Origin: a virus
Lineage: Duplodnaviria; Caudoviricetes
IMG/VR virus record: IMGVR_UViG_2772190672_000001
Coordinates: 47,281 to 111,280 of that record
Reading direction: 5' to 3' (one strand)
Length of the DNA: 64,000 nucleotides
Below are positions 6,630-29,797 of the stretch, one piece after another. The position numbers were made by a program, and so were the translations under genes. Within the stretch, counting starts at the first letter, position 1, and each line of letters starts with the position of its first letter. Below the pieces are notes generated by a model. The model was not told the origin of the DNA. It made no database searches and saw only the letters and a list, made by a program, of their open reading frames with translations.

Positions 6630-6636
6630 AGGATCG

Positions 6637-9014: not shown

Positions 9015-9047
9015 GGTCGATTCCCTCGGTGGGTTGTGGAGTGCCGG

Positions 9048-9355: not shown

Positions 9356-9398
9356 CGTGTGCTCCCTGGAGGTGAGGTGGTGTGTCGCACTTCATTCA

Positions 9399-9447
9399 TT
9401 GACCAAACCTCCCGGTTTACTCTCCCTGCACCGGTGGGTTTGGTCAA
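9399..9447 (-). repeat. Repeat R4
   Basis: TTGACC-AAACCTC-CCGGTTTACT-CTC-CCTGCACCGG-TGGGTTT-GGTCAA. Confidence 0.9.
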
Positions 9448-9470
9448 AGAAGCGGCAGGAAAGCCGCTGG

Positions 9471-10271
9471 TCAGGCCCGGCCCGCCAGCTCCGCCAGGGC
9501 CCGGAGGGCGGTAACCGCCGCAGCGAGGTCTCGGACGGCGATCACGTTGAGATCGAGGCCGAGGGCGCGGACGTCGTGAGCCTGACGGGCGGGGACGAGG
9601 ACGGTGCGGTGGCCGTTGATGTGCGCGGTGCGGGCCGCGTCGGTGACGCCGGGGAGACCGTTGATCGCCCCGTCGAAGCCGCGCAGCTCGCCGAGGAGCA
9701 CGACCTGGCCGAGCACGCGGGAGTCGAGCTGGCCGCTGGCGGCGAGGACGGTGCAGGCTGTCGCGAGGTCGAGCGTGCTGGTCACGTTATGGTGGTCGTT
9801 GATCCGGACCGTCACCGCGCCGTCGGGGAAGGTGAAGCCGCTGCTGACGATCGCGCCGTGGATCCGCCCTTCCGGCGCGGTGTCGAAGGTGTGCCATCCG
9901 GTGATCCGGAAGCTGTCCGGGCCGGGCCAGACCGTGGCCTCGACCAGCACCATCCCGGTGCTGGCGGCGCCGTTGGTGTGGGCGGAGGTGGCGGCCAGGT
10001 TGCTGAGGTTGCTGGTCGGGGCGAGCGCGTAGTCGGGGTTGCCGGATGCCCGCCGCAGGCCGTCGATGAAGCTGTCGAGGGCCTCGGCCCCTGTGGCGCC
10101 CTGGATGATGTCCACCTGGCCGAGGGCGTCGCCCGCTTCGACGTCCAGCTCCTCGACCGCCCTGCGCCTGCGAATGAGGTCGGCCGGCGCGGGGGCGATG
10201 TCCCACAGGGTGTAGCTGGCGGCGTCCCTGCGGCCGACGATGATGAACTCGGGGGTGCGGGTGGTGATCAT
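9471..10271 (-). CDS. Second ComM/YifB N-terminal-domain protein, no ATPase
   Basis: RIHGAIVSSGFTFP...DLATACTVLAASGQLD...VLLGELRGFDG. Confidence 0.7.
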   Translation of the reverse strand: MITTRTPEFIIVGRRDAASYTLWDIAPAPADLIRRRRAVEELDVEAGDALGQVDIIQGATGAEALDSFIDGLRRASGNPDYALAPTSNLSNLAATSAHTNGAASTGMVLVEATVWPGPDSFRITGWHTFDTAPEGRIHGAIVSSGFTFPDGAVTVRINDHHNVTSTLDLATACTVLAASGQLDSRVLGQVVLLGELRGFDGAINGLPGVTDAARTAHINGHRTVLVPARQAHDVRALGLDLNVIAVRDLAAAVTALRALAELAGRA

Positions 10272-10290
10272 GGCTTTCTCCCTGGGGTGA

Positions 10291-10381
10291 GGTGGCGGTT
10301 CCGGGGCGGGCGGCGCGCACCGGGCTCGGGGCCCGTCGCGCCGCCTGCGCCGGAGGCAGCCGCCCGGCCGCCCGGCCGTCA
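10291..10381 (-). repeat. GC-rich structured intergenic element, copy 2
   Basis: GGTGGCGGTTCCGGGGCGGGCGGCGCGCACCGGGC...GCCCGTCGCGC shared with 9048-9139. Confidence 0.7.
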
Positions 10382-10651
10382 GGACTTGCGGCGGTTGATG
10401 GTGTGGAGGGTGACGCCCTCGGCGGCCAGGGCCCGGCAGATGTTGCCGCGCACCCACCCGCCCCAGCCGTCCGACTCGTACTCGGCGAGGAACTGGCGCC
10501 GCTTCGGGTGCGCCGCGTTCGGGCTGAACGTGGCAGCCAGCTCGTAGGCCAGGGTCCGGGTGTTCCACGGGCCCTCGAACAGCCCGTCGGAGATGTCGCT
10601 GTCCTCCAGGTCCCAGTACAGATGGAGGAGGGGGGTCCGGGTCTGGTCCAT
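10379..10651 (-). CDS. Hypothetical protein
   Basis: GGAG RBS; follows R5. Confidence 0.7.
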   Translation of the reverse strand: MDQTRTPLLHLYWDLEDSDISDGLFEGPWNTRTLAYELAATFSPNAAHPKRRQFLAEYESDGWGGWVRGNICRALAAEGVTLHTINRRKS

Positions 10652-10699
10652 GTCTGGCGCTCCGTCCCTGATGGGTGGTGGTGTGTCCTGCCTTCATCT

Positions 10700-10748
10700 T
10701 TCCGCAAACAAGCCGGGATAACCTCGCTATCCCGGCTGAATTGGTCAA
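10700..10748 (-). repeat. Repeat R5
   Basis: TTCCGC-AAACAAG-CCGGGATAAC-CTC-GCTATCCCGG-CTGAATT-GGTCAA. Confidence 0.85.
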
Positions 10749-10770
10749 GGATTGTCAGGAAAGCCGCTGG

Positions 10771-12567
10771 TCAGGCGGCCAGGTCGTAGCGGTCGATCTC
10801 CTCGCCGGTGATGCACTCGGCGAGCATGCAGATCAGGACCTCCGAGACGTTCGGGGTGACCGCGTTGCCCAGCTGGCGCACCCGGTCGCGCTTCGAGCCC
10901 AGCACCACGTAGTCGTCGGCGAAGGCCATCGCGCGCTGGATCTCGTGCGGCTGGAGCATCCGGAACAGGACGTCTTCGATCTTGATGTCCCCCTGGACCA
11001 GGGCGAAGCGGTCACGGGTGGAGATCGCGCCGACGGGCTCGCTGACCGGGCGCGGGGTCCCGTTGCCGTAGTACGGGGCCAGGAAGGGTTCCCAGGTGAC
11101 GAGGGACTGGTGGCCGGTGGTGGTGAGGGTCCGCATCGGCTCGGCCAGGTCGGTGCAGTGCTCGCCGCCGTCGCCGGTGGAGCCGTTGTTCCGCATCATC
11201 ATGCCCGGCATCGGGACCGCGGCCAGGCCGTGGTGATTGCCGCTGGCGCAGACCGTCGCGAGCGGGTCGCTGATCGCGCGGACGTCGCTGCTGCCGCCCC
11301 GGATCTCGGTGATGAACGGCAGCCACGCGAGCCCGGCCTCGGCCCTGGCGGTCTGGGTCTGCATCGGCCCGTAGACCGTGCGGGCGTTCTTGCCTTCGCG
11401 GCCGTCGCACGGGACGAGCAGCGGCGGTACCGCCAGCGCGTCATTCTCGCGGGTGGTGCGGGTCGGCATCGGGTCGAGGAGGTCGGTGGCCGAGTCCCGC
11501 CAGGTGCCGCCGGTGGGCACCATCAGCGGGCGGGCGAACTTGTCCAGCCCGGCCTGGATGCGCCGCATCGTCTTCTCGGCCAGCGGGGTCTTGCGGTCGC
11601 CGATCCGACCGCCCGCGATCGACCAGTCGATGGCCGCCGCCGCGGGGAGCGTCTCGGGTTCCACGATCTGGTGGCCACACTTCGTGTTCGGGCACCGGTA
11701 GTCGTACTGGCTCTTGTACCGGCCCATGTCGACGCCGGGCTTCCGGAAGACCTGCCGGGCCTTGACCATCTGGTCGCAGCCGGTGCAGAACGCTGAGGGG
11801 GCGAGCCACTTCTCGAAGTTCGGGGTGCGGCCGAGGCTCTGGTGCCAGTAGACCAGGTAGAGACGGTCGCGGGACTGCGGGGCGCGGTGCACCGAGCGCG
11901 GCTCGGCGTGCATCGAGTTCAGCGCGACCAGCCGGGTCCGGTAGCCCATCTTGTGGAACTCCGCGATCCAGCGGTCCCACTCGGCCCACTGCCGGACGTC
12001 GACCACGTTCTCGACCACGCCCGCCTTGACCAGGCCGCCGCGCTCGATTACGCCTCGCAGGTAGAGCGGGATCTCTTCCATCAGCGCCCGACTGGCCTCA
12101 TCCTCCGCCGTCGGGCCGCTGTCCCTCTCGTCCTCCGTCTGGAACTTATCCGCCTCCAGGTCTGCGTACAGGTCGAGCAGGTCGCCCTGGACGGCCTTGG
12201 CGAAGTCCCGCTTTTTGCCCTGGGCAATGCTCCACCGAGTGCACTCGGGCGAGCCCCAGTGGATGTCGGTGATCGGCCAGGCCCAGACCGGGGCCTTGCG
12301 GATGTCGCCGATGTAGTGGGCGACGCCGGGGAAGTTCCGCTCGTGACTCTCGATCGCCCGCCGCCAGTGGTTCGCGGCCCGGGTCACCTTGACGTTCGGG
12401 ACGGCGTCCGCGCCCTGGGTGGAGCCACCCGCCCCGCAGAACCAGTCCATGACCGACAGCTCGGTGCCGTCGTGCCTGTACGCCTTGGTTCGCCGGCGCA
12501 GGGCGTAGGTCTGGGCCGAGCTGGAGGCCGAGGCCATCGCGCGGGTGGTGGAGGAGATGTAGGGCAT
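10771..12567 (-). CDS. C5 cytosine DNA methyltransferase (no cognate nuclease seen)
   Basis: Motifs FCGAGG (I), SPEC (IV), ENV (VI), QSRDR (VIII), LGNAV (X). Confidence 0.95.
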   Translation of the reverse strand: MPYISSTTRAMASASSSAQTYALRRRTKAYRHDGTELSVMDWFCGAGGSTQGADAVPNVKVTRAANHWRRAIESHERNFPGVAHYIGDIRKAPVWAWPITDIHWGSPECTRWSIAQGKKRDFAKAVQGDLLDLYADLEADKFQTEDERDSGPTAEDEASRALMEEIPLYLRGVIERGGLVKAGVVENVVDVRQWAEWDRWIAEFHKMGYRTRLVALNSMHAEPRSVHRAPQSRDRLYLVYWHQSLGRTPNFEKWLAPSAFCTGCDQMVKARQVFRKPGVDMGRYKSQYDYRCPNTKCGHQIVEPETLPAAAAIDWSIAGGRIGDRKTPLAEKTMRRIQAGLDKFARPLMVPTGGTWRDSATDLLDPMPTRTTRENDALAVPPLLVPCDGREGKNARTVYGPMQTQTARAEAGLAWLPFITEIRGGSSDVRAISDPLATVCASGNHHGLAAVPMPGMMMRNNGSTGDGGEHCTDLAEPMRTLTTTGHQSLVTWEPFLAPYYGNGTPRPVSEPVGAISTRDRFALVQGDIKIEDVLFRMLQPHEIQRAMAFADDYVVLGSKRDRVRQLGNAVTPNVSEVLICMLAECITGEEIDRYDLAA

Positions 12568-12611
12568 TCGGTCCGTCCCTTCCGGGTGGGTGGGTGTGTC
12601 GTCCTCTTTCA

Positions 12612-12660
12612 TTGACCCCACCCCTCGGGATAACCTCGTTATCCCGATGGGTTTGGTCAA
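12612..12660 (-). repeat. Repeat R6
   Basis: TTGACC-CCACCCC-TCGGGATAAC-CTC-GTTATCCCGA-TGGGTTT-GGTCAA (perfect inner stem). Confidence 0.95.
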
Positions 12661-12683
12661 AGAATCGTCAGTGAAGCCGCGGG

Positions 12684-13568
12684 TCAGATGCCGTCCGGCC
12701 GGAACGGGATCAGGGGGAAAAGGTCCCGGTCGAGCGCGTACCAGCCCCACTCGTGGCCGCCGATGGCGTACCGGCCGTCGGCGTTGGGGTGGAGGACCTC
12801 GACCGCCTGCTCGCGCCGCTCGCCGGCGAGGTGCATCCAGCAGGTGACGATGACGACCGCGTGCCGGGTGCGGTTGACCCTGCCGCTCAGGACGTGAACG
12901 GTGTCGATCGAGCCGTGCCCGTACCTGGCGGCGTCTCGCTGGGTGTCGGCGGCGATCCGGCGGACGGTGCGGAGGTCGAGCCAGGGCCGCACGTAGCCGT
13001 CGCGCTGGTCAGCGGGGTCGATGAGCGCCGGGTAGTGGTCGCGGTCGTTGGCACACACCAGGACTTCGACCATCGAGCCGGGGGCGGCTTCCGGGGCGGC
13101 CGGGCTGGGCGGGTCGAGGGTGAGGGAGGCGGCCCGCATGAGGTCGAGGGTGAAGGCGGGTCGGCCGTAGCGGTCGGGCAGTTCGTCGCACAGTGGGCGC
13201 CAGACACCTCGGGTGTTGTCGTCCAGGTATGCCGTCCAGCCACTGAGGTCGTGCAGGGCGTTCCCGGCCTCGGTCTGGCCGACGTCGTCGGTGAAGGTGC
13301 GCTCGGCGCCGGCCGTCGTCCAGTAGCGGCCGGTGGGAAACAGCGAGTCCTCGCCTGCGACCAGTTCGAGGCGGGCGGCATCGAAGGGGGCGCCGGGCTG
13401 GTGGCCGGTGAGGATGTCGCGGACGGCCGCGGCGGTGACGACGAGCATGACGCGGCCGAGCTGCTCGTGCGCGGTCTGGTTGTCGTTCAGGGCCTGGTCG
13501 ACGGCTGCGCCGAGCGCGCTGCTGGCGGGCAGTTCGTAGGCGGGGCGAGAAGGGGGCTGGCGGTCCAT
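12684..13568 (-). CDS. Hypothetical protein, partial paralog of 14599-15702
   Basis: Shared GYVRP..L..TQ...DTVHV...P.ADGRY.IGG.EW.W domain. Confidence 0.75.
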   Translation of the reverse strand: MDRQPPSRPAYELPASSALGAAVDQALNDNQTAHEQLGRVMLVVTAAAVRDILTGHQPGAPFDAARLELVAGEDSLFPTGRYWTTAGAERTFTDDVGQTEAGNALHDLSGWTAYLDDNTRGVWRPLCDELPDRYGRPAFTLDLMRAASLTLDPPSPAAPEAAPGSMVEVLVCANDRDHYPALIDPADQRDGYVRPWLDLRTVRRIAADTQRDAARYGHGSIDTVHVLSGRVNRTRHAVVIVTCWMHLAGERREQAVEVLHPNADGRYAIGGHEWGWYALDRDLFPLIPFRPDGI

Positions 13569-13611
13569 GCCGGGTCCGTTCTGTGTGTGGTGGGTGTTGC
13601 ATCCTCGATCA

Positions 13612-13660
13612 TTGACCCCACCATCCGGGGTAACCTCGTTACCCCGGCCGATTTGGTCAA
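13612..13660 (-). repeat. Repeat R7
   Basis: TTGACC-CCACCAT-CCGGGGTAAC-CTC-GTTACCCCGG-CCGATTT-GGTCAA (perfect inner stem). Confidence 0.95.
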
Positions 13661-13682
13661 AGAAGCGTCAGGAAGTCGCTGG

Positions 13683-14570
13683 TCAGGCCGTGATGCCGTC
13701 GGCCAGGTACGAGCCACCGTCAGCCACACGCAGGGCGAATACCTCGGCCTTCGGGCCGCGCTCGGCGCGCAGGGCGCCGTGCCAGCGGTATCCGTCGAAG
13801 TCGGGCCGTCGGCCGCCTTCGTTCTGCCAGTGCAGCTGCCATCCGGGCCAACCCGGCTTGCTGGAGTCGCTCAGCCCGCCGGCGAACCCGAGCGAGCAGA
13901 CGAGCAGCCGCAGCCCGACCATGAACGCCTTGGAGTGCATGCGCACCTGGTTCCGCTCACGGTGCGGGGCGCCGTGGACGAGGCCCACGAGGAACGCGAT
14001 CCGCAGCGTCTCGGGCATCGTCAGCGCCCAGGCCGGGAAGCGGCGTCCGGCCCCGTACTGGCCGAAGTGCTCGGCGAGCCAGTCGACCAGCTCGGGCCGC
14101 AGTGCCGCCGCGGCTGAGCCCTTGAGCCGGATCATGGCCCCGGCCGTGCGGAAGACGTCCACGGGGTCGGCGTCGGCGAGGGGGGCGGGCAGGTCGGGGA
14201 TCGCCAGCGGATCCCCGAAGTGGAGGGGTGAGGCCAGCCGGTGTCGGTCGGTCAGGTCGCGGACCCTGGTCCAGCCCGCAGCTGACAGCTCACCGGCCGG
14301 GCCACCGTCCAGCAGGACGGGCGCGGTTCGCGCGTGGAACGGGTGGTCGGCCGTCGTGACGAGGCCGGTGGCGAGCGTGGCGCAGTGGACGCGGACAGTG
14401 TCGGCGATGGCGCTCATAGTCTCGGTGACCGGCTGCCACCGGCGCTCGTGGGTGAACACCTCATCCCCGGCGGTGACGGTTTCGATGGGGGTGAGGCCGC
14501 GCAGAGTCAGGATCATCGTTCCGGCGGCGAAGCCCTCGGGGGCGGGCTCCAGGGGGGTCTGGTTGCTCAT
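13683..14570 (-). CDS. Free-standing Hint/intein-like protein with degenerate LAGLIDADG region
   Basis: GFAAGTMILTLRGLTPIE (block A), LVTTADHPF (block B), AFLVGLVHG, VFALRVADGGSYLADGITA (blocks F/G without HN). Confidence 0.75.
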   Translation of the reverse strand: MSNQTPLEPAPEGFAAGTMILTLRGLTPIETVTAGDEVFTHERRWQPVTETMSAIADTVRVHCATLATGLVTTADHPFHARTAPVLLDGGPAGELSAAGWTRVRDLTDRHRLASPLHFGDPLAIPDLPAPLADADPVDVFRTAGAMIRLKGSAAAALRPELVDWLAEHFGQYGAGRRFPAWALTMPETLRIAFLVGLVHGAPHRERNQVRMHSKAFMVGLRLLVCSLGFAGGLSDSSKPGWPGWQLHWQNEGGRRPDFDGYRWHGALRAERGPKAEVFALRVADGGSYLADGITA

Positions 14571-14598
14571 GTGGCGTCCTTGTCTCGTCGGGCGGGGG

Positions 14599-15702: not shown

Positions 15703-15769
15703 GACGGTGGTACCTCTCGTGGGGTGGATGGTGGGGGCTCCGCCGGGCGGGCGGGGCGCCGTGGGTGGT

Positions 15770-16066
15770 TCAGCCGGTGAAGAGGGCCAGCCACTCGTTC
15801 GCGCGGGCCGGGAGGCGCGTGTCCTTGCCCGCCCAGGCCATCTCGTCGTCGATCTGGCGGGCGAGCAGCTCGAACCGCTCGGGGGTGAAGTGCTCGCCCC
15901 GCTCCAGCGCCTGGGCCAGGGAGTGGGCCTTGATGGCGGCCGCCCGCATCGCTTCCTTCTCGCAGCCGAAGCCGAGGAGGTCGGCGCGGGCGCCGGCGAC
16001 CGTGCCGTAGCCGGTCAGGGCCACGGCCGTTGCCTGGGCCTCGGTGGTGACGGTGATGGTGGCCAT
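15770..16066 (-). CDS. Hypothetical protein
   Basis: GGGAG RBS; follows R8. Confidence 0.7.
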   Translation of the reverse strand: MATITVTTEAQATAVALTGYGTVAGARADLLGFGCEKEAMRAAAIKAHSLAQALERGEHFTPERFELLARQIDDEMAWAGKDTRLPARANEWLALFTG

Positions 16067-16108
16067 GCCGGGCTCCCTGGGTGATGGTGGGTGGTGACAC
16101 CTTCTTCA

Positions 16109-16157
16109 TTGACCCCACCTGCCGGGATAACCTCGATATCCCGGTTGATTTGGTCAG
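16109..16157 (-). repeat. Repeat R8
   Basis: TTGACC-CCACCTG-CCGGGATAAC-CTC-GATATCCCGG-TTGATTT-GGTCAG. Confidence 0.9.
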
Positions 16158-16181
16158 GGAATCGACAATGAAGCCGCTGGT

Positions 16182-17009
16182 TCAGGCCATCGCGAACAGG
16201 TCGAGCTGGAACGGCTGGCGCTGGTGCCAGCCGTGGGTGGGGAGGGTGCCGTCAGGGTCGGCATCCAGGCACAGGAGGACGGTCCTGACGTCCGCCCCGG
16301 ACGGCTTGAACGCGTCGTCGGGCAGCGGGACGATCTCGCCCTCGTTGTCGGCGATCAGCTTGCGGAACTCCTGCGCGGGCCGGTCGAGGTGCCAGGTGAT
16401 CGACTCGGGCATGACGGCCACGAGGGTGCCACCGTCCTTCAGGAAGCCCAGGGCGTGCATGACGTGGGCGGTGGCGTTGCCGAAGGGCGGGTTCATCAGG
16501 ATGCGGTCGTACGGCTCATCGATGGCGAGCGGGTCGAGGTCGAGGAAGTCGCCCTGGACGACCTGGCGGGCGATGCCGAGCTCCCGGAGGACGTGGGCTC
16601 GGCGGGGGTCGATCTCGACGCAGTCCACGATGCCCATCTCCTCGGCGGCCCGCTTGGCGAGCGAGCCGACACCGGCCGACGGTTCCAGCACCGTGTGGCC
16701 GACTCGGATCGAGGCGTGCTCCAGCATGTCAAACACCACGGCGGGCGGGGTCGGGTACCAGCCCTGTTCGAACTTCGACGGCCACTCGCCGGCCGCGAGG
16801 CAGTCGCGCATGAACTGCTCCACCGGGAAGGGGAAGACGTGGGCTCGAACCGCCTTGCGGCCGTCCCACCGGCCGCCAATGTCCTTGAGCATCTGGTTCA
16901 TCCGGCCGTACAGAGCGCGGTCGAGCTCGAAGGGGACGGCTACGCGGTCGCCGCTGATGATCGTGCGGTAGTCGGTGAGGACGGTGAGGACGTCGGCCGG
17001 GATCTGCAT
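16182..17009 (-). CDS. Small N6-adenine-type SAM-dependent methyltransferase
   Basis: WYPTP, VLEPSAGVG, VQGDFL, MNPPF. Confidence 0.9.
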   Translation of the reverse strand: MQIPADVLTVLTDYRTIISGDRVAVPFELDRALYGRMNQMLKDIGGRWDGRKAVRAHVFPFPVEQFMRDCLAAGEWPSKFEQGWYPTPPAVVFDMLEHASIRVGHTVLEPSAGVGSLAKRAAEEMGIVDCVEIDPRRAHVLRELGIARQVVQGDFLDLDPLAIDEPYDRILMNPPFGNATAHVMHALGFLKDGGTLVAVMPESITWHLDRPAQEFRKLIADNEGEIVPLPDDAFKPSGADVRTVLLCLDADPDGTLPTHGWHQRQPFQLDLFAMA

Positions 17010-17086
17010 CGGTGCTCCTTCGCGCGTGCGGGCAGAACTGGGGGCGCCCCGCCACTGAGGGCGGGGCGCTGAGGAGGTGGGGCGGG

Positions 17087-17482
17087 TCAGGCGGGGATGG
17101 CGGCTTCCTCGTCGCCCTGGATGTCGAGCGCCGCGCACTGGAGGTCGTTGTCGGTGGCGAACTCGCCGTTGCGGATTCGGGCGAGCATGCCGGCCTGGCC
17201 CTCGGGGCCGAGCTGGGCGATGTGATAGCCGCTGTCCCCAGAGAGGGCGCCGTGGTCGACCATGGCCTGGGCGCCGGCGGAGAGCTTGCGGAGCGCGAGC
17301 CGGTTGAGGACGCGGGCCCAGTGGACGCGGGTCATGGGGCCGATCTCCTCGGCTGTGTATCCGGCGTCGGCGAGGAGGCCGTAGATCCGGGCCTCGACCA
17401 TGGGGGTGCCGTGGGCCTGGTCGATCTGGTTGGCGATCTGCTGGGCGATCTCGATGGGGATGACCTTGCTACTGGCGTCCAT
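17087..17482 (-). CDS. ParB-central-HTH-like small protein
   Basis: PMVEARIY..L...RLALRKLSAGAQAMVDHGAL...IAQL..EGQ aligns by eye with the HTH region of ParB 4890-6053. Confidence 0.55.
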   Translation of the reverse strand: MDASSKVIPIEIAQQIANQIDQAHGTPMVEARIYGLLADAGYTAEEIGPMTRVHWARVLNRLALRKLSAGAQAMVDHGALSGDSGYHIAQLGPEGQAGMLARIRNGEFATDNDLQCAALDIQGDEEAAIPA

Positions 17483-17530
17483 TACTGCCCCTTTCCGGGG
17501 GATTTGGCGTGTTGTGTCGCATCCTCTTCA

Positions 17531-17579
17531 TTGACCCCGCCCGCCGGGTTAACCTCCGTAACCTGTTGAGTTTGGTCAA
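17531..17579 (-). repeat. Repeat R9
   Basis: TTGACC-CCGCCCG-CCGGGTTAAC-CTC-CGTAACCTGT-TGAGTTT-GGTCAA. Confidence 0.9.
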
Positions 17580-17633
17580 GTAATCGCCAGCGGAACCTCC
17601 CGGCCGGTGGTCCGCTGCGCGGGCCCCGGCCCG

Positions 17634-18659: not shown

Positions 18660-18677
18660 GCCGGTTTCCCTCCTGGT

Positions 18678-19148: not shown

Positions 19149-19164
19149 GCTGCGGTTCCTTCCG

Positions 19165-19452
19165 TCAGGCGGTGGCGGCGTGGGCGGCGTTGCGGGCGTC
19201 GGCCCATGCCCGGATGAGGGCGGTTCCGGCCTCGCCGGCGGCCTCGCCGGGGGTCTTGCCGTCGTGGAGTCCGGAGAGGTAGCGGCTGGCGAGGAACGCG
19301 GTGGCGCTGTCCCGGGTGAAGGTCTCCACCAGGCCGTCGAGGCTGAGGTGCGGGAACGACTCATGGAGGGAGAGGGCTGCGAATCCGGCGATCCGGCCGA
19401 CGGCCTCGCCGATCTGGTCGGCGGTCAGGGGCTTGTGGGCGGGGGTGGCCAT
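19165..19452 (-). CDS. Hypothetical protein
   Basis: AGGAG RBS, MATPAHKPLTAD; follows R10. Confidence 0.65.
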   Translation of the reverse strand: MATPAHKPLTADQIGEAVGRIAGFAALSLHESFPHLSLDGLVETFTRDSATAFLASRYLSGLHDGKTPGEAAGEAGTALIRAWADARNAAHAATA

Positions 19453-19496
19453 GTCGGGCTCCTGGGGGTTTGTAGTGGTTGGCATCATCCTCTTCA

Positions 19497-19545
19497 TTGC
19501 CGATACCTTCCGGGGTAACCTCACTACCCTGATTGATTTGGTCAA
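19497..19545 (-). repeat. Repeat R10
   Basis: TTGCCG-ATACCTT-CCGGGGTAAC-CTC-ACTACCCTGA-TTGATTT-GGTCAA. Confidence 0.85.
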
Positions 19546-19568
19546 GAAATCGTCAGGGAAACCGCAGG

Positions 19569-22316: not shown

Positions 22317-22372
22317 GATTCCTCCTTCGGAGATGCGGGCGGCCCGGCCCCCGCGGGGGCCGGGCCGGGCGG

Positions 22373-22630
22373 TCAGTGGACGCGGGTGGCGGCCATCGCG
22401 GCGTCCACGATGAGGCCGGTCTGGGCCCAGCTGGCCTCGGCCTGGGCGAACTCGGAGCCGCCGTAGCCCTCGCGGCCGTCGATGTACGCCTTGCCGTGGC
22501 CCTTGGGGAGGCGGACGGTCCAGGTGTAACCGGCGTGGCTGACGGTGGTGGTCAGGCCGAGGTTGGTGCGCTTCCAGCTGGTGGCGCCGATGGCCAGGGT
22601 GAAGACCATGTCGGTGGTGGTGGTGTCCAT
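22373..22630 (-). CDS. Hypothetical protein
   Basis: GGGAG RBS; follows R11. Confidence 0.7.
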   Translation of the reverse strand: MDTTTTDMVFTLAIGATSWKRTNLGLTTTVSHAGYTWTVRLPKGHGKAYIDGREGYGGSEFAQAEASWAQTGLIVDAAMAATRVH

Positions 22631-22671
22631 GTCCGGCTCCCTGGGGGTGGTGAGTGGTGACACCTTCTTCA

Positions 22672-22720
22672 TTGACCCCATCCATCGGGTTAACCTCGTT
22701 AGCCCGATGGATTTGGTCAA
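22672..22720 (-). repeat. Repeat R11
   Basis: TTGACC-CCATCCA-TCGGGTTAAC-CTC-GTTAGCCCGA-TGGATTT-GGTCAA. Confidence 0.95.
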
Positions 22721-22742
22721 AAGGTCGGCAAGTATAGGCAGG

Positions 22743-23267
22743 TCAGCGGCCGTCGAGACTCGCCAGCTGGCGGACTAGCCCCCAGCCGTCGCGCCAGAAG
22801 GAACGGCGGGTGTTGTCGTACGCCTCCTGCCACTCGGGCGGGACCCGGCCGTCACCTCGGGTGTACGTGCCGGTGAGGCCGTCGTACCGGCCCAACAGCT
22901 CGGTGGCGTCGTCAGCGAGTTCATCGAGGCCGCGCCGCCGTTCATGCTCGGGACGCAGATCGACGTGCCCGAGCTCGTGCTGCCCCTGAGGCAGACCCTC
23001 GTACGACTCGTCGGCGACCACGTAGCAGTCGGGCGTCTCCTCGCCTGCCATGTGCCAGGCGAGCGCTGCCGCCCACGCCTTCTCCGTCGAGCAGGCGTCG
23101 AGCACGTACCGGGTGGCGCTGCCGCTGCGGCCGCTGCAGTCGTGCCGCTCGGGGCCTCGGACGGTCACGGTGAACGGCCGCTCCGCCTGCCGGTAGTCGT
23201 CGGGCAGATTGCCGTACAGGGGCTCGCCGCCGTAGCGCTCGGGCGTCTCCAGGTACTTCCCGGTCAT
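22743..23267 (-). CDS. Hypothetical protein
   Basis: GGAAGGA RBS, MTGKYLETPERYGG. Confidence 0.7.
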   Translation of the reverse strand: MTGKYLETPERYGGEPLYGNLPDDYRQAERPFTVTVRGPERHDCSGRSGSATRYVLDACSTEKAWAAALAWHMAGEETPDCYVVADESYEGLPQGQHELGHVDLRPEHERRRGLDELADDATELLGRYDGLTGTYTRGDGRVPPEWQEAYDNTRRSFWRDGWGLVRQLASLDGR

Positions 23268-23296
23268 CGGGGTCCTTCCTTCGCCGGTGTAGGGGT

Positions 23297-23362
23297 GTCC
23301 GGATGCTGTCCGGACGGAGTCCGGGTGCTGTCCGGACGGAGTCCGGGTGCTGTCCGGACACT
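23297..23362. repeat. Six tandem 11-bp units GTCCGG(A/G)(C/T)NNN; related clusters near 23400-23450, 23953-23985, 34910-35030, 46410-46565, 47048-47070 and 53016-53150
   Basis: gtccggatgct|gtccggacgga|gtccgggtgct|gtccggacgga|gtccgggtgct|gtccggacact. Confidence 0.85.
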
Positions 23363-23371
23363 GCGGGGCCG

Positions 23372-23902
23372 CTACCAGATGAGGGCGGCGTGACCTGCGC
23401 GGACACTGTCCGGACATCCCGTCCGGACGCTGTCCGGCCGGGTGTCCGCGTGCAGAACGATCGGGTTGCGCCGCCAACTGTCGTCCACCCACAGATGCAC
23501 CCAGGGCCGCCCGGAGATCGAGCGCCCGTTCATCGGTGGGACCGGGCGGCCGGGGAGGACCCTGCGCCCGCTCCATGCGCCGTGGAACCAGATCCGGCCG
23601 GCCACGTTGGTGTAGCGCATGCCGACCAGCTCGGAGAGGTCGAGCCCTTCGAGGGAGAGGTCCCGCAGCTCCTCGGCGAGCGAGCGGAGGGTCCAGGTGG
23701 ACGTCCAGCCGAGCCGTTCGGCGCTGGCCTCGCGGAGCTGGCGCAGTTCCAGCGGGGTGAGCGGCTCGTCCTCGTAGCGGCGGTGGATCGCGTCGTCCAG
23801 CGCGCGGAAGAGGTGCCGGGGGGCGGCCTGGGTGTCGGTGTCGGGGAGGTAGGTGGCGGCGGCGGCGTAGACGCCCCGGATGGTGGTTTCGGTGACCTGC
23901 AT
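23372..23902 (-). CDS. Hypothetical protein
   Basis: GAAAGG RBS, MQVTETTIRG. Confidence 0.6.
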   Translation of the reverse strand: MQVTETTIRGVYAAAATYLPDTDTQAAPRHLFRALDDAIHRRYEDEPLTPLELRQLREASAERLGWTSTWTLRSLAEELRDLSLEGLDLSELVGMRYTNVAGRIWFHGAWSGRRVLPGRPVPPMNGRSISGRPWVHLWVDDSWRRNPIVLHADTRPDSVRTGCPDSVRAGHAALIW

Positions 23903-23988
23903 GGCGGCCTTTCGTGGGGGCGGAGGAGGGTCCGGACGGCGGCCGCTGAGCTGGGCGGACACTGTCCGGACGCCGTCCGGACAGTGGG

Positions 23989-24618
23989 TCAGGCGAAGTT
24001 GGTCTGGTCGGTGTGCTCGCCGCCGCGCTTCCAGATGAGCGCGCGGACGTGGGCCGCGGGGACCTCGTAGAAGAGGCGGCCGGGGAGCGGCTGGCCGTTG
24101 AGGCGGGTCAGCTGGAGTTCGCGCTCCTCCTGCTCCCAGGCGTCATCGGCGGGCGGTTCGATCGCCTCGGGCAGGTAGACGTCCACGTAGCCGCCGCCGG
24201 CGTCGGCCTTGATGGCGATGACCTCGCCGTCGGCCAGGCGGATGCGGAGCATCGGGCGGCGGCCGGTGCCGGTGCCGTCGGTGACGGCCTGGTCGAAGCG
24301 GTCGGTGACGGGGGCGCTCTGGTCGGCGTGCTCGCCGCCGTGCTCCTCGATGAGCGTGCGGACTTTGGCCACGGCCACCTCGTAGAAGTAGCGGCCGTCG
24401 ACCGGCTCGTCGCCGGCGGTCAGCCACGCCTCCCACGGGTCTTCCAGCTCCCAGCTCTCGCCGTCGGGGGTGCCGATCTCGTTCGGCAGGTAGACGTCCA
24501 CGGTGGCCGCACAGGAGGCGGCCTTGATGCTGATGACCTGGCCGTCGGCGAGGCGGAGGTTGTAGTGGACGTCGTTGGTGCCGTCGGTGAGGAACTGCTC
24601 GAAGTGGGTGGCGGTCAT
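23989..24618 (-). CDS. Hypothetical protein made of two copies of one ~100-aa domain
   Basis: RLADG.VI.IKA...VDVYLP...WE...FYEV....VR.LI...GGEH.DQ occurs twice. Confidence 0.8.
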   Translation of the reverse strand: MTATHFEQFLTDGTNDVHYNLRLADGQVISIKAASCAATVDVYLPNEIGTPDGESWELEDPWEAWLTAGDEPVDGRYFYEVAVAKVRTLIEEHGGEHADQSAPVTDRFDQAVTDGTGTGRRPMLRIRLADGEVIAIKADAGGGYVDVYLPEAIEPPADDAWEQEERELQLTRLNGQPLPGRLFYEVPAAHVRALIWKRGGEHTDQTNFA

Positions 24619-24663
24619 GGCTGCTGCTCCGATCTGGGGTGGTGGGTGGTGACACCTTCTTCA

Positions 24664-24712
24664 CTGACCCCACCCATCGGGGTAACCTCATTACCCCGAT
24701 GGATTTGGTCAA
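24664..24712 (-). repeat. Repeat R12
   Basis: CTGACC-CCACCCA-TCGGGGTAAC-CTC-ATTACCCCGA-TGGATTT-GGTCAA. Confidence 0.95.
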
Positions 24713-24735
24713 GAAGTCGACAAGGAAGCCGCCGG

Positions 24736-25350
24736 TCAGACCGAGGTGGCGGCGGCGGTGAAGGCGGCGTCCAGGGACTGGACGAAGTCCGCGCCGACGG
24801 CCGCGAGGTGGGCGGCCTGGCGAGCATCGGCCTGCTCGGCATTCTTGGCGTGGGCGGCCAGGCCGCACGAGCACCAGGCGGTCGTGCGGTCGCTGGATTC
24901 CATGCGCTGATGCTTGGCGGCCACCAGGCTGAGGCGAGCAGACAGGGTGAGCCGCAGGTGCTCGTTGTCGCCGTTGAGGAGGAAGCCCTGCGCGAGGAGC
25001 CGGTCGGCCTGGCTGGGCGGAATTTCGTACGAGCCGGCCGCGATGACGGGCATCGTGTACCGCTCGGAGTCGACGAGCCGGACGGCGGGGACGGAGGCGA
25101 TGACCCGCAGGTTGGCCAAGTCGTAGTCGCTGGGGTCGGCGGGGACCCGCGGGGTGAGGGTGATGGAGCGCACGACCCGGGCACGGGTGGCGGGGTCGAT
25201 CCGACGCCAGCGGATGACGGCGCCGCCGGTGCGCTGGGGCTCGATGGCGTAGCCGCGGTTACAGGCCCGGCGCAGGAGGAGCAGGGCGTGGGGCTCACTG
25301 ACGCTGCCGGTGGTGATGCTGCTGCCGCTGTCGACGGTCTCGGTGAACAT
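24736..25350 (-). CDS. Hypothetical protein
   Basis: AAGGAG RBS, MFTETVDSG; C-terminal WCSCG..H. Confidence 0.7.
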   Translation of the reverse strand: MFTETVDSGSSITTGSVSEPHALLLLRRACNRGYAIEPQRTGGAVIRWRRIDPATRARVVRSITLTPRVPADPSDYDLANLRVIASVPAVRLVDSERYTMPVIAAGSYEIPPSQADRLLAQGFLLNGDNEHLRLTLSARLSLVAAKHQRMESSDRTTAWCSCGLAAHAKNAEQADARQAAHLAAVGADFVQSLDAAFTAAATSV

Positions 25351-25428
25351 AGTGGCCGCTCCTTGCTGTCGGGGTGGGCCCGGCCGGGTCCGTGGCCGAG
25401 CCCTGGGTGGTGTGTCGTACATTCATCC

Positions 25429-25477
25429 TTGACCAAGCCCAACCGGTTAACCTCCCTACACCGGCCGATTTGGTCAA
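25429..25477 (-). repeat. Repeat R13
   Basis: TTGACC-AAGCCCA-ACCGGTTAAC-CTC-CCTACACCGG-CCGATTT-GGTCAA. Confidence 0.9.
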
Positions 25478-25500
25478 GGGATCGACAAGGAAGCTGCTGG

Positions 25501-25884
25501 TCAGCGGTCCAGCTTGCCGAACATGACGTCGGCCACGGACGGGCCCGGCCTGCCCGAGCCGGGCAGCTTCCCGTACAGCGCTCCCTCGCCGGGGCCGCGC
25601 TCGTCGTCCGGCTCGGGCTGCCGCTCCGCCTGCTCGGGCCCGGCCTCCTCGACCGGCGCGCCGTGGCGGGCGAACAGGGCCTTCAGCTTGTCGTCGTCCT
25701 CCAGCAGCTCGCGCACGACCTTGCCGGTGGCCTCGCTGTGTTCGTCGCAGGTGGCGAGCCCGTAGCCGCTGCTGGCGTACACCAGCAGGTACGCCTCGAC
25801 GCTCTCACCGCCCAGCAGGTGGCGGACGCACTGCATCGGGGTGCTGATGCGGTGCTCGTAGGTGCGGATCCAGTTGATGTTCAT
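25501..25884 (-). CDS. Hypothetical protein
   Basis: AAGGGA RBS; ORF track. Confidence 0.65.
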   Translation of the reverse strand: MNINWIRTYEHRISTPMQCVRHLLGGESVEAYLLVYASSGYGLATCDEHSEATGKVVRELLEDDDKLKALFARHGAPVEEAGPEQAERQPEPDDERGPGEGALYGKLPGSGRPGPSVADVMFGKLDR

Positions 25885-25920
25885 GGCGGTCCCTTCGGGT
25901 GGGGTGGTGGGGTGGTGGGG

Positions 25921-26847: not shown

Positions 26848-26869
26848 GGTGCTCCTTCCGGTGGTGTGG

Positions 26870-27340: not shown

Positions 27341-27360
27341 GGGGGTCCTTCCGTGGTCGG

Positions 27361-27516
27361 TCAGTAGGAGGCGAGGCAGGAGCAGACGGTCTTCCAGCCG
27401 AACTGGTCGACCTCGATCTGGTCGCCGCAGCCGTCGCAGCGGGTGGTGCGCCAGCGGGACGGCTCGGGCTGCTCGATGGCGTTTCGGATCTCGGGGGGCT
27501 TGGTCTGATCCGGCAT
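27361..27516 (-). CDS. Small Cys-motif protein
   Basis: MPDQTK...CDGCG...CSC. Confidence 0.5.
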   Translation of the reverse strand: MPDQTKPPEIRNAIEQPEPSRWRTTRCDGCGDQIEVDQFGWKTVCSCLASY

Positions 27517-27527
27517 GGGGAGCCCTC

Positions 27528-27881
27528 TCAGCTGGCCAGCGCGATCATGTGCGCGGCGATTCGGTGCTTGCAGTCGCACTTCGACCGGAGTCCGGCCGGG
27601 CAGGTGCAGGCGGAGTGGGTGGTGCGGTAGGCGGTGCTGCCGTCGCTGCTGACCGCGAGGAACACGCGGTTCTTGCCGGTGTCGCGGAGGTGGATGATCC
27701 CGCCCTGTTCCAGCAACTCGACCGCCCGCTCGACCAGGTGGGTCTTGTAGCGGCGGGTGATCTGCTCGGAGCGTCCGGCCTTGCGCACCATCCGCCTGCA
27801 CTTGGGCCCGAGACCGTCGGGCGAGGTGTTGCGGAGCCGCGTGTGGCATCGCGTGCACCGGGTCTCCGGCTTGTTGTCCAT
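27528..27881 (-). CDS. Zn-finger protein (DUF6011-like N-terminus plus SWIM-like finger)
   Basis: CTRC..L....GLGPKC and CTCPAG...CKH. Confidence 0.65.
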   Translation of the reverse strand: MDNKPETRCTRCHTRLRNTSPDGLGPKCRRMVRKAGRSEQITRRYKTHLVERAVELLEQGGIIHLRDTGKNRVFLAVSSDGSTAYRTTHSACTCPAGLRSKCDCKHRIAAHMIALAS

Positions 27882-27922
27882 GGCGGCTCCCTTGGGGTGG
27901 GTGGTGTGTCGTGCATTCATCA

Positions 27923-27971
27923 TTGACCGAATAATCCGGGATTACCGTGTTATCCTGGTTTATTTGGTCAA
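27923..27971 (-). repeat. Repeat R14
   Basis: TTGACC-GAATAAT-CCGGGATTAC-CGT-GTTATCCTGG-TTTATTT-GGTCAA. Confidence 0.9.
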
Positions 27972-28024
27972 AGAATCTTCAAGGGATGAGTACTCCGCCG
28001 CAGGTCAGCGGCGGGGCGCCCACC

Positions 28025-28789
28025 TCAGTCGGTCAGCTCGGCGATCAGCACCGTGGCGTTGTCCACGTACTTCCACTCGCCCTCCGGCCGGCTCTTGCGG
28101 GACGTCTCCACGGCCAGGTCCACGAAGCCCTGCGCGATGCCCCGCAGGTCACCGTCGTCCAGCTCCACGTACAGGTCATGCCCGGCCTCGTCGTGCGGCT
28201 CGTACGCGCCGTCGCTGGCCAGGACAAGGCGGTCGCCGTCGACCAGCGGGCGGGCGGCGGCCTCGATCGCCGGGTGGCCGTAGATGTCCAGGGCTTCCTG
28301 GTCGGTGTAGACGGCCCCCAGGTAGGAGGTGATGACGTTGCGGCTGCCGCCCTCGGGGTTGGTGGCGGCGGGCGGGAGGACCCGGCGCTCGTTGTGGTCG
28401 TCGGTCAGCCGGTAGGCGATGCCGCGCCGGAGCAGGTAGGCGCGGGAGTCCCCGGCCCAGGCCAGGCCGAGGGAACGGCCGGGGGCGGCGACCGCGACGA
28501 CGGCGGCCGCGCTGGGCATGTACCGCCGGGTGTACGGGTCCTGACGGTCGGGGTCGGCCGCGATCTCCTCGTAGAGGGAGCGCAGGGCGCTCTCGGCGTC
28601 GCCGCGGCGGGCGGCCCGGATGGCGAGGCGGGCGGCCGTCCGGCGGGTCCAGTCGCGGATCGCCTCGGAGGTGCCGATGCCGTCGAGGACCACGTAGGCG
28701 CGGGTGCCGTCGGGGGCGGTACGGACGGCTGCCGCGTCGCACTGGAGGCCCCTGCCGCCGGTGTTCTGGGCGGTCGCGTAACTGCGCAT
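28025..28789 (-). CDS. PP2C/PPM-family Ser/Thr phosphatase
   Basis: GGR..QCD, VLDGIG, AWAGDSRAY, LTDDH, LASDG, DNATV. Confidence 0.85.
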   Translation of the reverse strand: MRSYATAQNTGGRGLQCDAAAVRTAPDGTRAYVVLDGIGTSEAIRDWTRRTAARLAIRAARRGDAESALRSLYEEIAADPDRQDPYTRRYMPSAAAVVAVAAPGRSLGLAWAGDSRAYLLRRGIAYRLTDDHNERRVLPPAATNPEGGSRNVITSYLGAVYTDQEALDIYGHPAIEAAARPLVDGDRLVLASDGAYEPHDEAGHDLYVELDDGDLRGIAQGFVDLAVETSRKSRPEGEWKYVDNATVLIAELTD

Positions 28790-28862
28790 GGATCGTTCTC
28801 CGTTCAGTGAGGGGTGAGGGGGCGCCGCGCGGCCGGGTGGCCGCGCGGCGCCGTCGGCTCGG

Positions 28863-29351
28863 TCAGGCGCGCTCGCCGGCGGGGCGGACGCAGGTCTCGT
28901 GGGTGTGGCAGTTGCACTTCCCGCAGCCCGCGCACATCTGCCCGGCCTCCAACCCGCAAGGGCCGCAGCCGCCGGTCGCGTCCAGCTCGGCGTCGTCGAG
29001 CGCACAGGTCAGGTCGGCGGCTGCGGCCAGACTGAAGCGGGGGCGGGGTTTGCACGAGCCGTCGCAGGTCTCGGGGCCACCGAGGAGCACGCCGTCCTCG
29101 CCGGCGTGACCGTCGCAGCCCGCGGGGTCTCGGACGATCACGGTGACGTCGTGGACCTTGAGCGTGGCCTCGCCACGGATGGCCCAGTCCGAGGCGATGC
29201 CGCCGACGATGGCGATCATCTCGCGGTCGTTGGTGGTGGGCTTGCCCTGAGCGCGGGCGACGCCCCAGACGATGTTCCGCAGCTCGCCCTGGCGGTCGGC
29301 GAAGTAGGTGCGGTCCTCGATGCCGGGGTGCTCGATGGTGACTTCGAACAT
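28863..29351 (-). CDS. Hypothetical Cys-rich protein
   Basis: AAGGAG RBS; CGPC..CAGCGKCNC. Confidence 0.65.
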   Translation of the reverse strand: MFEVTIEHPGIEDRTYFADRQGELRNIVWGVARAQGKPTTNDREMIAIVGGIASDWAIRGEATLKVHDVTVIVRDPAGCDGHAGEDGVLLGGPETCDGSCKPRPRFSLAAAADLTCALDDAELDATGGCGPCGLEAGQMCAGCGKCNCHTHETCVRPAGERA

Positions 29352-29389
29352 GGGCTGCTCCTTCGTGGGTGGGTGTTCCTTGCCCATCT

Positions 29390-29439
29390 TGGACCATGTG
29401 GACCAGGATTGTGGACGTTATCCCAAATAAGTTGGTCGA
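29390..29439 (-). repeat. Repeat R15 (degenerate, 50 bp)
   Basis: TGGACC...CCAGGATT...GTTATCCC...TTGGTCGA; upstream gene's stop begins 23 bp away. Confidence 0.6.
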
Positions 29440-29461
29440 AAAGTGGTGGGTTGACGGCCGT

Positions 29462-29632
29462 TCAGGCGCCCAGGTCGCAGCGCTCGCAGAAGACGATGCC
29501 GCTGCCGTCGATGAGGCAGACCAGTTCGCGCCCGCAGTCGCACATGCCGAGGTCGGGCAGTTCCGGCAGCGGCTGGGTGATCCGGATGGCCGGAATGCTG
29601 ACGGTGGTGGCCGCAATGATGGGGGCGCTCAT
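29462..29632 (-). CDS. Small zinc-ribbon protein, first gene of the repeat-driven region
   Basis: GGAGG RBS; CDCG...CERC, similar pattern to 9137-9355. Confidence 0.6.
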   Translation of the reverse strand: MSAPIIAATTVSIPAIRITQPLPELPDLGMCDCGRELVCLIDGSGIVFCERCDLGA

Positions 29633-29797
29633 CGGTCCCTCCCTGGGGTGTCGTGCTGTTTGTCGTACTTCATTCCTCCCCCACCCACCGTTGTCCACCC
29701 TCATTTGGGCGAGAAAATGCCACGTCAAACCGGGTTTGACCTTGCCTTTGGTCGGTCATCCGTGTTTACCCCGGAGGCCTTGTGCAAGACTCGCGGT

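Follow-up and report, generated by a model that had tools for sequence, protein, structure and literature searches.

Promoter-early stem-loops (PeSLs) occur in the T4-type phages RB49 and phi1 (Arbiol et al. 2010, PMC2839356; Comeau et al. 2014, PMC4122927). Their layout includes the upstream stop codon and places a stem-loop between the −35 and −10 boxes (PMC2839356), and promoter and terminator activity, as well as mini-circles, have been demonstrated (PMC2839356; PMC4122927). SAS/ESAS repeats were described for Cluster K mycobacteriophages (Pope et al. 2011, PMC3203893) and, according to PMC12699233, their function was still unverified in 2025. Stoperators, which are 13-bp asymmetric sites distributed genome-wide, are known from Cluster A mycobacteriophages and Streptomyces phage R4 (PMC9283540; PMC10276819).

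The DNA analysed here (64,000 nucleotides, the window) belongs to a temperate Streptomyces siphovirus or provirus with a record length of 111,280 bp. A divergent regulator gene on one side and the terminase on the other bound an accessory region with an array of modules of about 115 nt, which head about 15 accessory gene units, each copy directly 5' of a Shine-Dalgarno (SD) word and ATG. Searching with a repeat profile (nhmmer) found 14 copies; a 40-copy profile raised this to 16 copies and one remnant. All are on the minus strand, which is the gene strand, within a 25-kb region (window 4746–29724), and the nhmmer profiles found none in the rest of the 111,280-bp record. The copies are 70–88% alike as direct repeats of about 115 nt and average around 56% GC, against 71% for the array. 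From the head of the array to its distal end they are:

29616–29724, minus strand: degenerate head-of-array copy, adjoining the divergent HTH regulator gene (40-copy nhmmer profile, E = 7e-4)
29334–29477, minus strand: copy 15, diverged; stop of the upstream 88-aa ORF at 29462–29464 (TGAAC), in register (nhmmer E = 1e-9; ORF list)
27870–28020, minus strand: copy out of register; PP2C-like gene stop at 28025 (−56), GC-rich hairpin (dG −25.5) with CTGACC in its loop
25867–25913, minus strand: remnant with TGACC and 3' leader/SD only (profile positions 108–154), preceding a 127-aa gene specific to the window
25386–25512, minus strand: copy in register; upstream stop 25501 (TGACC)
24601–24750, minus strand: copy in register; upstream stop 24736 (TGACC)
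22613–22755, minus strand: copy in register; upstream stop 22743 (TGACC)
19435–19586, minus strand: chimeric copy in register; stop of a 1038-aa DUF3560 protein at 19569 (TGACC)
17468–17610, minus strand: copy out of register and without TGACC; upstream TAG 17634, then a GC-rich hairpin (dG −32.6)
16047–16199, minus strand: copy in register; methyltransferase stop 16182 (TGAACC)
13551–13697, minus strand: copy in register; Hint-domain ORF stop 13683 (TGACC)
12549–12700, minus strand: copy in register; upstream stop 12684 (TGACC)
10639–10785, minus strand: copy in register; C5 methyltransferase stop 10771 (TGACC)
9337–9486, minus strand: copy in register; ChlI/ComM-N-like protein stop 9471 (TGACC)
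6518–6667, minus strand: copy whose upstream 138-aa ORF ends at the second TGA (CTGACG, −10), the first CTGACC being kept but unused
6035–6184, minus strand: copy out of register; upstream TAG 6222 (−75), then a GC-rich hairpin (dG −32.7), CTGACC kept
4746–4858, minus strand: last copy, partial; ParB-like gene stop 4890 (−40), with a GC-rich hairpin (dG −28.5) in place of the TGACC segment

From 5' to 3', the module consists of C-TGA-CC, a −35-like TTGACC box, 17 nt, a GAGGTT hexamer central in a 49-nt dyad, a conserved C-rich leader, the SD word (AGGGAGCC-like) and ATG, with TGA words in two or three frames 5' of the −35 box. Among 40 copies from three phages, TTGACC is exact in 30; the hexamer 17 nt past it reads GAGGTT in 23, with A at position 2 in 30 and T at position 6 in 36. 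The hexamer forms the loop of the dyad, TTGACCAAA...TTTGGTCAA, which lies about 45 nt upstream of the SD word and has a variable inner stem. Most copies contain the dyad, with CG<->TA changes at inner-stem pairs, while in several it is degenerate; this was established by fixed-length pair counting, which replaced RNAalifold on a MAFFT alignment, where the stems were mis-registered and no structure resulted. GAGGTT makes a poor −10, its first position being G where T is usual, and a generic sigma-70 scan of the array returned 0 promoters. Readings of the 5' segment or the 3' arm as ECF-sigma, SigB-type or downstream −10 sites misfit in spacing when judged by eye, and a conserved uORF in the leader was ruled out, the frame being lost and indels not being multiples of three. 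On the sense strand the dyad is not followed by a U-tract, and a terminator scan flags the inner hairpin on the antisense strand only. Sense RNA has a slight folding advantage over antisense in 25 of the 40 copies (p = 0.025 in an MFE comparison, a weak difference), which leaves room for a role at the RNA level, and G:T and A:C mismatches, counted as a test of the strand of function, are tied at 48:48. Against Rfam, with E ≤ 1, the array produced just a tRNA and a sub-threshold sRNA match; the module matches no Rfam family.

The preliminary description of this DNA had pointed to stop codons at a fixed distance from the repeats and, from these, to a possible integron-like cassette-shuffling system. 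The register itself is confirmed: in 10 of 15 copies the upstream TGA lies 24–27 nt before the TTGACC box, against a frame expectation of one third (binomial P = 0.0085). All ten are real stops of minus-strand ORFs with high GC3; eight read TGACC, and those at 16182 and 29462 read TGAAC. The abutting genes are indeed unrelated, with nine tails unlike each other apart from one shared QLDLFA(V/M)A tail. Shared gene tails as the cause of the register were tested; this single pair looks like a functional motif, not the spread of a repeat. That TGACC echoes the end of the core holds in so far as the word belongs to the module, since about five copies retain CTGACC without using it as a stop, a conservation suggesting that it has a function of its own beyond packing. 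The echo is nevertheless weaker evidence than it appears, because 23 of the 81 genes outside the array likewise end in a TGACC context. As for the similar words reported at other intergenic sites, those near 3219 and 60952 are CAGGTCA on the gene strand (TGACCTG on the other), and the one near 38550 is a CTGACCTGCGG word standing alone, with no other part of the module. Copies out of register hold a GC-rich hairpin between stop and module (mean dG −28.8 versus −16.8 kcal/mol, p = 3e-5). Fixed register is therefore better explained by packing, the spacer being absent unless a terminator-like hairpin is present, and there are two junction designs, stop fused to module and stop-hairpin-module.

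Like PeSLs, the modules are composite cassettes that recur between genes and start at the stop codon of the preceding gene (10 of 15 in the window; 11 of 18 and 3 of 8 in the two relatives carrying the module, where the same register is seen), with −35 and −10 boxes, here predicted, and a stem-loop between or around them. They also stand before accessory genes of a plastic region, in which cassette-plus-gene units distinguish relatives and crossovers fall inside repeats. The sequence is unrelated, however, and the host of this temperate siphovirus is a high-GC actinobacterium; the non-canonical −10 is placed in the loop of a far longer dyad, an AT-rich UP region is lacking, and the genes are large, up to 1038 aa, where PeSL genes are small ORFans.

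SAS/ESAS repeats are likewise actinophage repeats present in 11–19 copies in one orientation and only in the non-structural half of the genome, with a lineage-specific consensus, as here. They too have an imperfect inverted repeat (arms of 17 bp, spacer variable) and, just ahead of the start codon, a conserved word that contains the SD, GGGATAGGAGCCC there and AGGGAGCC here. The dyad of the present module is longer, of fixed length and set back from the SD word, to which it is adjacent in SAS/ESAS; there is also a clear −35-like box, and the unit extends back to the upstream stop, a register that the consulted parts of PMC3203893 and PMC12699233 do not describe for Cluster K. By the SAS definition given there, the 13-bp GGGATAGGAGCCC a few bases from the start with 17-bp inverted repeats directly upstream, the module is not an SAS, and the resemblance is one of layout only. 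Stoperators, too, are present in many one-orientation copies in the short intergenic spaces of temperate actinophages, and a repressor-type site is putative here, but the present element is about 115 nt long, dyad-symmetric and confined to one 25-kb array.

Integron attC arrays resemble the locus in having hairpin-prone repeats in direct orientation between unrelated genes, with a stop codon that often overlaps the repeat. Integron cassettes are, however, promoterless, with the site 3' of the gene and a common Pc, whereas the modules lie 5' of their genes and contain a −35-like box, hexamer, leader and SD; the IntI and attI/Pc arrangement is absent. The attC core sites follow the patterns RYYYAAC/GTTRRRY, with extrahelical bases, and the inner stem GGGATAAC..GTTATCCC matches neither pattern. 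Integron cassettes also shuffle in order and content among relatives and give rise to excised circles; here the content varies by module-plus-gene units. With no IntI by the array, promoter-like boxes and SD before the genes, and a conserved order, the proposed integron-like system is not upheld.

Three phages share the module: that of the window, the DH12 contig and a Streptomyces sp. Act143 prophage (also in IMG/VR as provirus 2862281513). When IMG/VR, GTDB genomes and metagenomes were scanned for the motif, several copies turned up only in the latter two; all other matches, including three from metagenomes, were single. The matches in two host genomes were confined to prophage regions. L005 and L008 each gave one weak partial profile match (E about 1e-6), L014 gave zero with the 40-copy profile, and neither the 20-kb array (megablast) nor one module (blastn) matched any of 50,697 phage records, which would fit a module confined to this lineage. 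DNA identity is 72–86% among the phages with orthologously placed modules, and the majority of the modules are orthologous by position. The three phages are colinear in gene order except for a 174-aa gene, which in DH12 is on the other side of the regulator; this goes against the suggested reordering of modules, by a yardstick that the preliminary description had itself set for shuffling.

Its claim that the repeats are crossover points for gain and loss fares better, as content differs mostly by module-plus-gene units. DH12 is without the module at 16047–16199 and the next small gene, an indel flanked by a TGAACCA direct repeat, and without the Hint-domain gene (stop 13683) and the module at 13551–13697; the decayed remnant at 25867–25913 marks a further indel. 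The module at 19435–19586 matches Act143 module A_28925 in its 5' half and the next module, A_29783, in its 3' half, and these two flank a gene that is extra to Act143. Judged by these matches, the chimera is a footprint of repeat-to-repeat recombination. Indels bounded by units and crossovers inside them, as in PeSLs, are thus represented by the chimera, the unit indels and the remnant, although the events are few because only three genomes carry the module. Since the intergenic space is the module itself, a module edge is in any case the unavoidable end point of many whole-gene indels.

Genes for putative DNA-binding and recombination proteins in the window are:

29369–30409, plus strand: tandem-HTH-like regulator at the head of the array (weak HTH match; true start probably later than 29369)
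4890–6194, minus strand: ParB/Noc-type DNA-binding protein at the distal array end (ParB_N, HTH_ParB; parB_part 120 bits versus a cutoff of 58)
56500–58586, minus strand: RecT and YqaJ-type exonuclease pair (Pfam RecT 2.7e-34, YqaJ 3e-17)
62195–64000, minus strand: tyrosine integrase, truncated by the window, at the end of the record (Phage_integrase 1.9e-22)

The HTH regulator is a candidate binder of the dyad, and the ParB-like protein an alternative candidate. Of the agents proposed earlier for recombination, the RecT/YqaJ pair is present and is the likely engine of any homologous exchange between repeats, by a pathway that we infer. The integrase is unlinked to the array, from which it is 33 kb away; it is the only tyrosine recombinase found and scores 44.8 bits on TIGR02249 against a cutoff of 265. 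By its profile matches it is a prophage integrase, not an integron integrase.

In phage TurkishDelight, a divergent gene (gp102) homologous to the HTH regulator (27% identity, E = 7e-6) heads an equivalent array. Its module, in 8 copies, is a different one: it has a promoter of sigma-70-like type, TTGACW-17-CAGTAT, together with a 16-bp palindrome whose start lies within the −35. The TurkishDelight DUF3560 homologue is headed by this other module, so module type follows the phage, not the gene.

We consider it rather probable that the repeat is a lineage-specific expression cassette heading about 15 transcription units, with a predicted promoter in each. Host RNA polymerase would initiate at every cassette, and a phage protein binding the dyad, either the head-of-array HTH protein or the ParB-like one, would switch all units together; on read-through RNA the dyad could fold as a hairpin too. 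An upstream gene needing no terminator-like hairpin would extend to the cassette and end on its first word, whereas one followed by a GC-rich hairpin would stop ahead of that hairpin. Because the cassettes are direct repeats of such length and likeness, homologous recombination between them, by RecT/YqaJ or host enzymes, would occasionally add or remove cassette-plus-gene units. For the anatomy, register, hairpin dichotomy, colinearity, unit indels and single chimeric module observed, the best reading, held with some confidence, is thus a promoter/operator-hairpin cassette with a putative promoter, binder and recombination pathway, in which recombination is a by-product, as with T4 PeSLs, and not a dedicated site-specific system. 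The array does not reveal a new recombination mechanism. If this reading holds, the PeSL idea of portable cassettes that both regulate and reshuffle extends from Gram-negative T4-type phages to a temperate high-GC Streptomyces siphovirus. It would also offer a testable model for the long-unexplained SAS/ESAS-type actinophage repeats, with one trans-acting regulator, about 15 identical operator-promoters and the two junction designs.

The weak candidate −10 would be less troublesome if the module acted between cistrons as RNA. One or a few long RNAs would then start at the head of the array. As in the T7 early region, the 49-nt hairpin (about 21 pairs, interrupted by a 2×2 A.G internal loop) would serve for RNase III-type processing or for stabilisation, and the leader would enhance translation; with stops at a fixed distance, ribosomes would stay off the hairpin. 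The length of the hairpin, which is long and nearly fixed, the covarying inner-stem pairs, the conservation that continues via the leader to the SD, the slightly more stable sense RNA and a register that puts the terminating ribosome just before the hairpin are all consistent with this. The outer stem TTGACC/GGTCAA, however, is conserved in sequence and does not covary, the loop GAGGTTA is conserved although a plain hairpin does not need it, and the tied mismatches give no strand signature. With the equivalent TurkishDelight modules being plain promoters and no Rfam family matching, an RNA element appears doubtful, and the promoter/operator cassette is preferred. A selfish miniature palindromic element of the MITE or REP type, spread beside stop codons with no role for the phage, is barely credible: many copies in one genome and dyad ends formed by the inverted words TTGACC/GGTCAA would suit it, but the copies have one orientation in one region, are coupled to SD and ATG and keep orthologous positions at the above level of divergence. 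The phage yielded neither a transposase nor copies at other places, and the matches in the two host genomes lie only in prophage regions.

A dedicated recombination site, integron-like or nuclease-targeted, would have the integrase, RecT/YqaJ or a ParB-type nuclease act on the hairpin, with the built-in TGA ending any incoming upstream gene. Gene flux in module-plus-gene units, the chimeric module, the TGAACCA repeat flanking one such indel, the TGA words in several frames ahead of the −35 box and the displaced 174-aa gene argue for it; the colinear order with modules as positional orthologues, the lack of an integron integrase or of any recombinase adjoining the array, and the position of the modules 5' of genes with SD and promoter features argue against. 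The module type is moreover lineage-specific while the genes are shared with phages using another module, and unit-sized indels are forced by the lack of other intergenic DNA, so that such a site seems very improbable. It is also improbable, if slightly less so, that the modules are purpose-built junctions of a gene-cassette system based on homologous recombination, in which built-in stops (TGACC and TGAs in other frames) would end upstream genes, promoter and SD would express downstream ones, and the hairpin would be the target through which RecT/YqaJ or ParB-type proteins lift exchange well above background; this would be a phage analogue of the integron without a site-specific recombinase.

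The array encodes methyltransferases and DUF3560, ParB-like, ComM-N-like and PP2C proteins. By their family names, the DNA methyltransferases and the ParB-like, ComM-N-like and DUF3560 proteins look like host-takeover or anti-defence functions, and a single switch for these genes would have practical value, both in the study of Streptomyces phages and for expression tools. Pfam searches with ten more early-region proteins revealed no sigma factor and no RNA polymerase, and the array also contains HTH-only paralogues of the ParB-like protein.

The record (111,280 bp, of which the window is the final 64 kb) is that of a temperate Streptomyces siphovirus or provirus. Within its left 47 kb lie the genes for terminase, portal, major capsid and a 1482-aa tape measure. 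The major capsid protein has 67% identity to its counterpart in the Streptomyces phage TurkishDelight and about 52% to those of the YDN12/TP1604 group. The GC content is about 71% and the minus strand carries almost every gene; RecT, a YqaJ-type exonuclease and a tyrosine integrase, the last interrupted by the end of the record, are all within the window.

The module, a repeat of about 115 nt heading the accessory gene units, was located in 14 copies by repeat finding and an nhmmer profile, and in 16 copies and one remnant by a wider profile built from 40 copies of three phages. All of them share the strand of the genes and fall within window positions 4746-29724, and a profile search of the whole record returned no copy elsewhere in it. 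In gene direction, the consensus starts with C-TGA-CC-nG-cGG .. TGnCgA .. TTGACCAAA and an inner stem (CgGGaTA), and continues with GaGGtTA, the inner stem again, GGtCAAtGAtGAAgG .. CACCa, the SD and the ATG. TTGACC is exact in 30 of the 40 copies; the hexamer 17 nt past it is GAGGTT in 23, with A at position 2 in 30 and T at position 6 in 36. The dyad, bounded by TTGACC...GGTCAA, has a length of 49 nt in the majority of copies and of 50 nt in all others. Watson-Crick or G:T pairs make up about 74% of its cells, an A.G/A.G internal loop recurs, and inner pairs change between CG and TA. Mean GC content is 56% for the modules, against 71% for the array. The array and its end include the following features (window coordinates):

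4046-4119, minus strand: tRNA gene (Rfam, 50.7 bits), directly downstream of the last module
4890-6194, minus strand: ParB/Noc-type protein (parB_part, 120 bits), at the end of the array
7788-9395 and 9471-10748, minus strand: two adjacent proteins with a ComM/YifB N-terminal (ChlI) domain
13683-14570, minus strand: free-standing Hint-domain ORF ending on a module's TGA, also present in the Act143 prophage
23989-24618, minus strand: 209-aa gene with an internal 315-bp tandem duplication (75-81% identity)
28863-29387, minus strand: 174-aa gene behind module copy 15

The preliminary description had listed ten stop codons at a constant distance from the repeats. These are true stops of high-GC3 ORFs, 24-27 nt ahead of TTGACC, and the observation is real: the register is found in 10 of 15 copies against a frame expectation of one third (P = 0.0085), and in 11 of 18 copies in the Act143 prophage and 3 of 8 in the DH12 contig. 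The stop context is TGACC in eight of the ten and TGAAC in two. The idea that TGACC echoes the core is weakened by its presence at stops beyond the array, 23 out of 81 of which also read TGACC. CTGACC is kept in about five copies whose upstream gene stops earlier, so the word is part of the module. The tails of the in-register genes are unrelated, except for one pair ending in QLDLFA(V/M)A. When the 62 nt preceding TTGACC were folded for the 40 copies, strong GC-rich hairpins were obtained for those out of register (mean -28.8 kcal/mol, versus -16.8 kcal/mol in register; Mann-Whitney, p=3e-5). There are thus two junction designs, one running from stop to terminator-like hairpin to module, the other with the stop fused to the module's first word. 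The register therefore amounts to a "zero spacer", not to a measured distance, and is explained mainly by packing.

The module was absent from the 50,697 phage records searched. A degenerate motif scan found it in multiple copies at only two places, the Streptomyces sp. Act143 prophage (18 copies; identical to IMG/VR provirus 2862281513) and a 118-kb Streptomyces sp. DH12 contig (at least 8 copies). The arrays are colinear across all three phages, with modules that are mostly positional orthologues. The single break in colinearity is the 174-aa gene, which is absent from the Act143 prophage and whose sole homologue (51% identity) is located beyond the regulator gene in DH12. The arrays differ by indels, often of whole module-plus-gene units: the Act143 prophage has an extra 230-aa gene with its module and two extra units of a module and a ParB-HTH paralogue, while DH12 is without a module and 98-aa gene, with the direct repeat TGAACCA on either side of that indel, and without the Hint-domain gene and module present in the window. 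Another indel is marked by a module remnant (TGACC and leader only). A chimeric module is seen at 19435-19586. The 5' half has 88% identity with the Act143 module that precedes the extra gene, and the module following that gene is the match for the 3' half and the gene downstream. This is the footprint of homologous repeat-to-repeat exchange. Several further indel ends coincide exactly with the module's TGA. Any indel of a whole gene would be expected to end so in this array, where there is no intergenic sequence other than the module.

The proposal of integron-like cassette shuffling is not supported, given the colinear order, the positionally orthologous modules and an integrase that is far from the array and not of the integron type (44.8 bits on the integron-integrase model, whose cutoff is 265). 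Unit indels and one chimera speak for modules as points of gene flux, the shared gene order of the three phages against shuffling. PeSLs of T4-type phages begin with the upstream stop codon and have a sigma-70 promoter, often with the stem-loop between -35 and -10; recombination at them inserts, deletes and replaces ORFans, and mini-circles have been demonstrated (PMC2839356). The Cluster K SAS/ESAS are similar in actinophage setting, copy number, single orientation and layout of inverted repeat plus SD word (PMC3203893), and their function was unverified as of 2025 (PMC12699233). The module has no sequence in common with either. The account with the best support is that of a PeSL-like regulatory cassette whose repeats occasionally mediate gene flux, and we consider it rather likely. 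GAGGTT is a weak -10, and a generic promoter scan returned no promoter in the array. Alternatively, the hairpin may act at the RNA level, in processing or stabilisation. Folding is slightly more favourable for the sense than for the antisense RNA (p=0.025), but G:T and A:C mismatch counts in the dyad are equal. No Rfam family matches the module. Two proteins are candidate binders of the dyad: the divergent HTH regulator at the head of the array (29369-30409) and the ParB/Noc-type protein, which has HTH-only paralogues among the array genes.

Phage TurkishDelight has a comparable arrangement. A divergent HTH gene, homologous to the regulator in the window (27% identity, E=7e-6), heads an array of the same layout with DUF3560, phosphatase, ParB-like and methyltransferase genes. 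The repeats there differ from the module, each being a sigma-70-like promoter (TTGACW-17 nt-CAGTAT/TTACAT) with a 16-bp palindrome, TGACTTTGCAAAGTCA, that begins at the -35, and its stops, unlike those in register here, lie at variable distances from them.

28478-40790 of L004, the TurkishDelight record (74.5-86.8 kb of the phage): eight-copy module, TAAGCG, then TTGACW, then TTGCAAAGT.., then CAGTAT; array headed by gp102, the HTH gene product

Homologous DUF3560 genes are thus headed by unlike modules: what the module type goes with is the phage and the regulator it carries, rather than the gene, and this speaks for regulation over a recombination system.

The QLDLFA(V/M)A tail ends both the 1038-aa DUF3560 protein (19569-22685, minus strand) and a 318-aa methyltransferase (16182-17138, minus strand). 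It is kept in all three phages, where 23 of 30 nt agree compared with a mean of 12, and resembles the beta-clamp-binding motif QL[SD]LF. The HTH_ParB-only paralogues, one in the window (17087-17482, minus strand) and two in the Act143 prophage, each stand behind their own module, which suggests tandem expansion of module and paralogue together. An AAA+ ATPase domain was not detected in either ChlI-domain protein, and DH12 has a single ChlI-domain gene against two in the window; the Hint-domain ORF is missing from DH12 along with its downstream module. The 209-aa gene gave no family match, and short GTCCGGAC-type tandem repeats are located near it (23294-23986).
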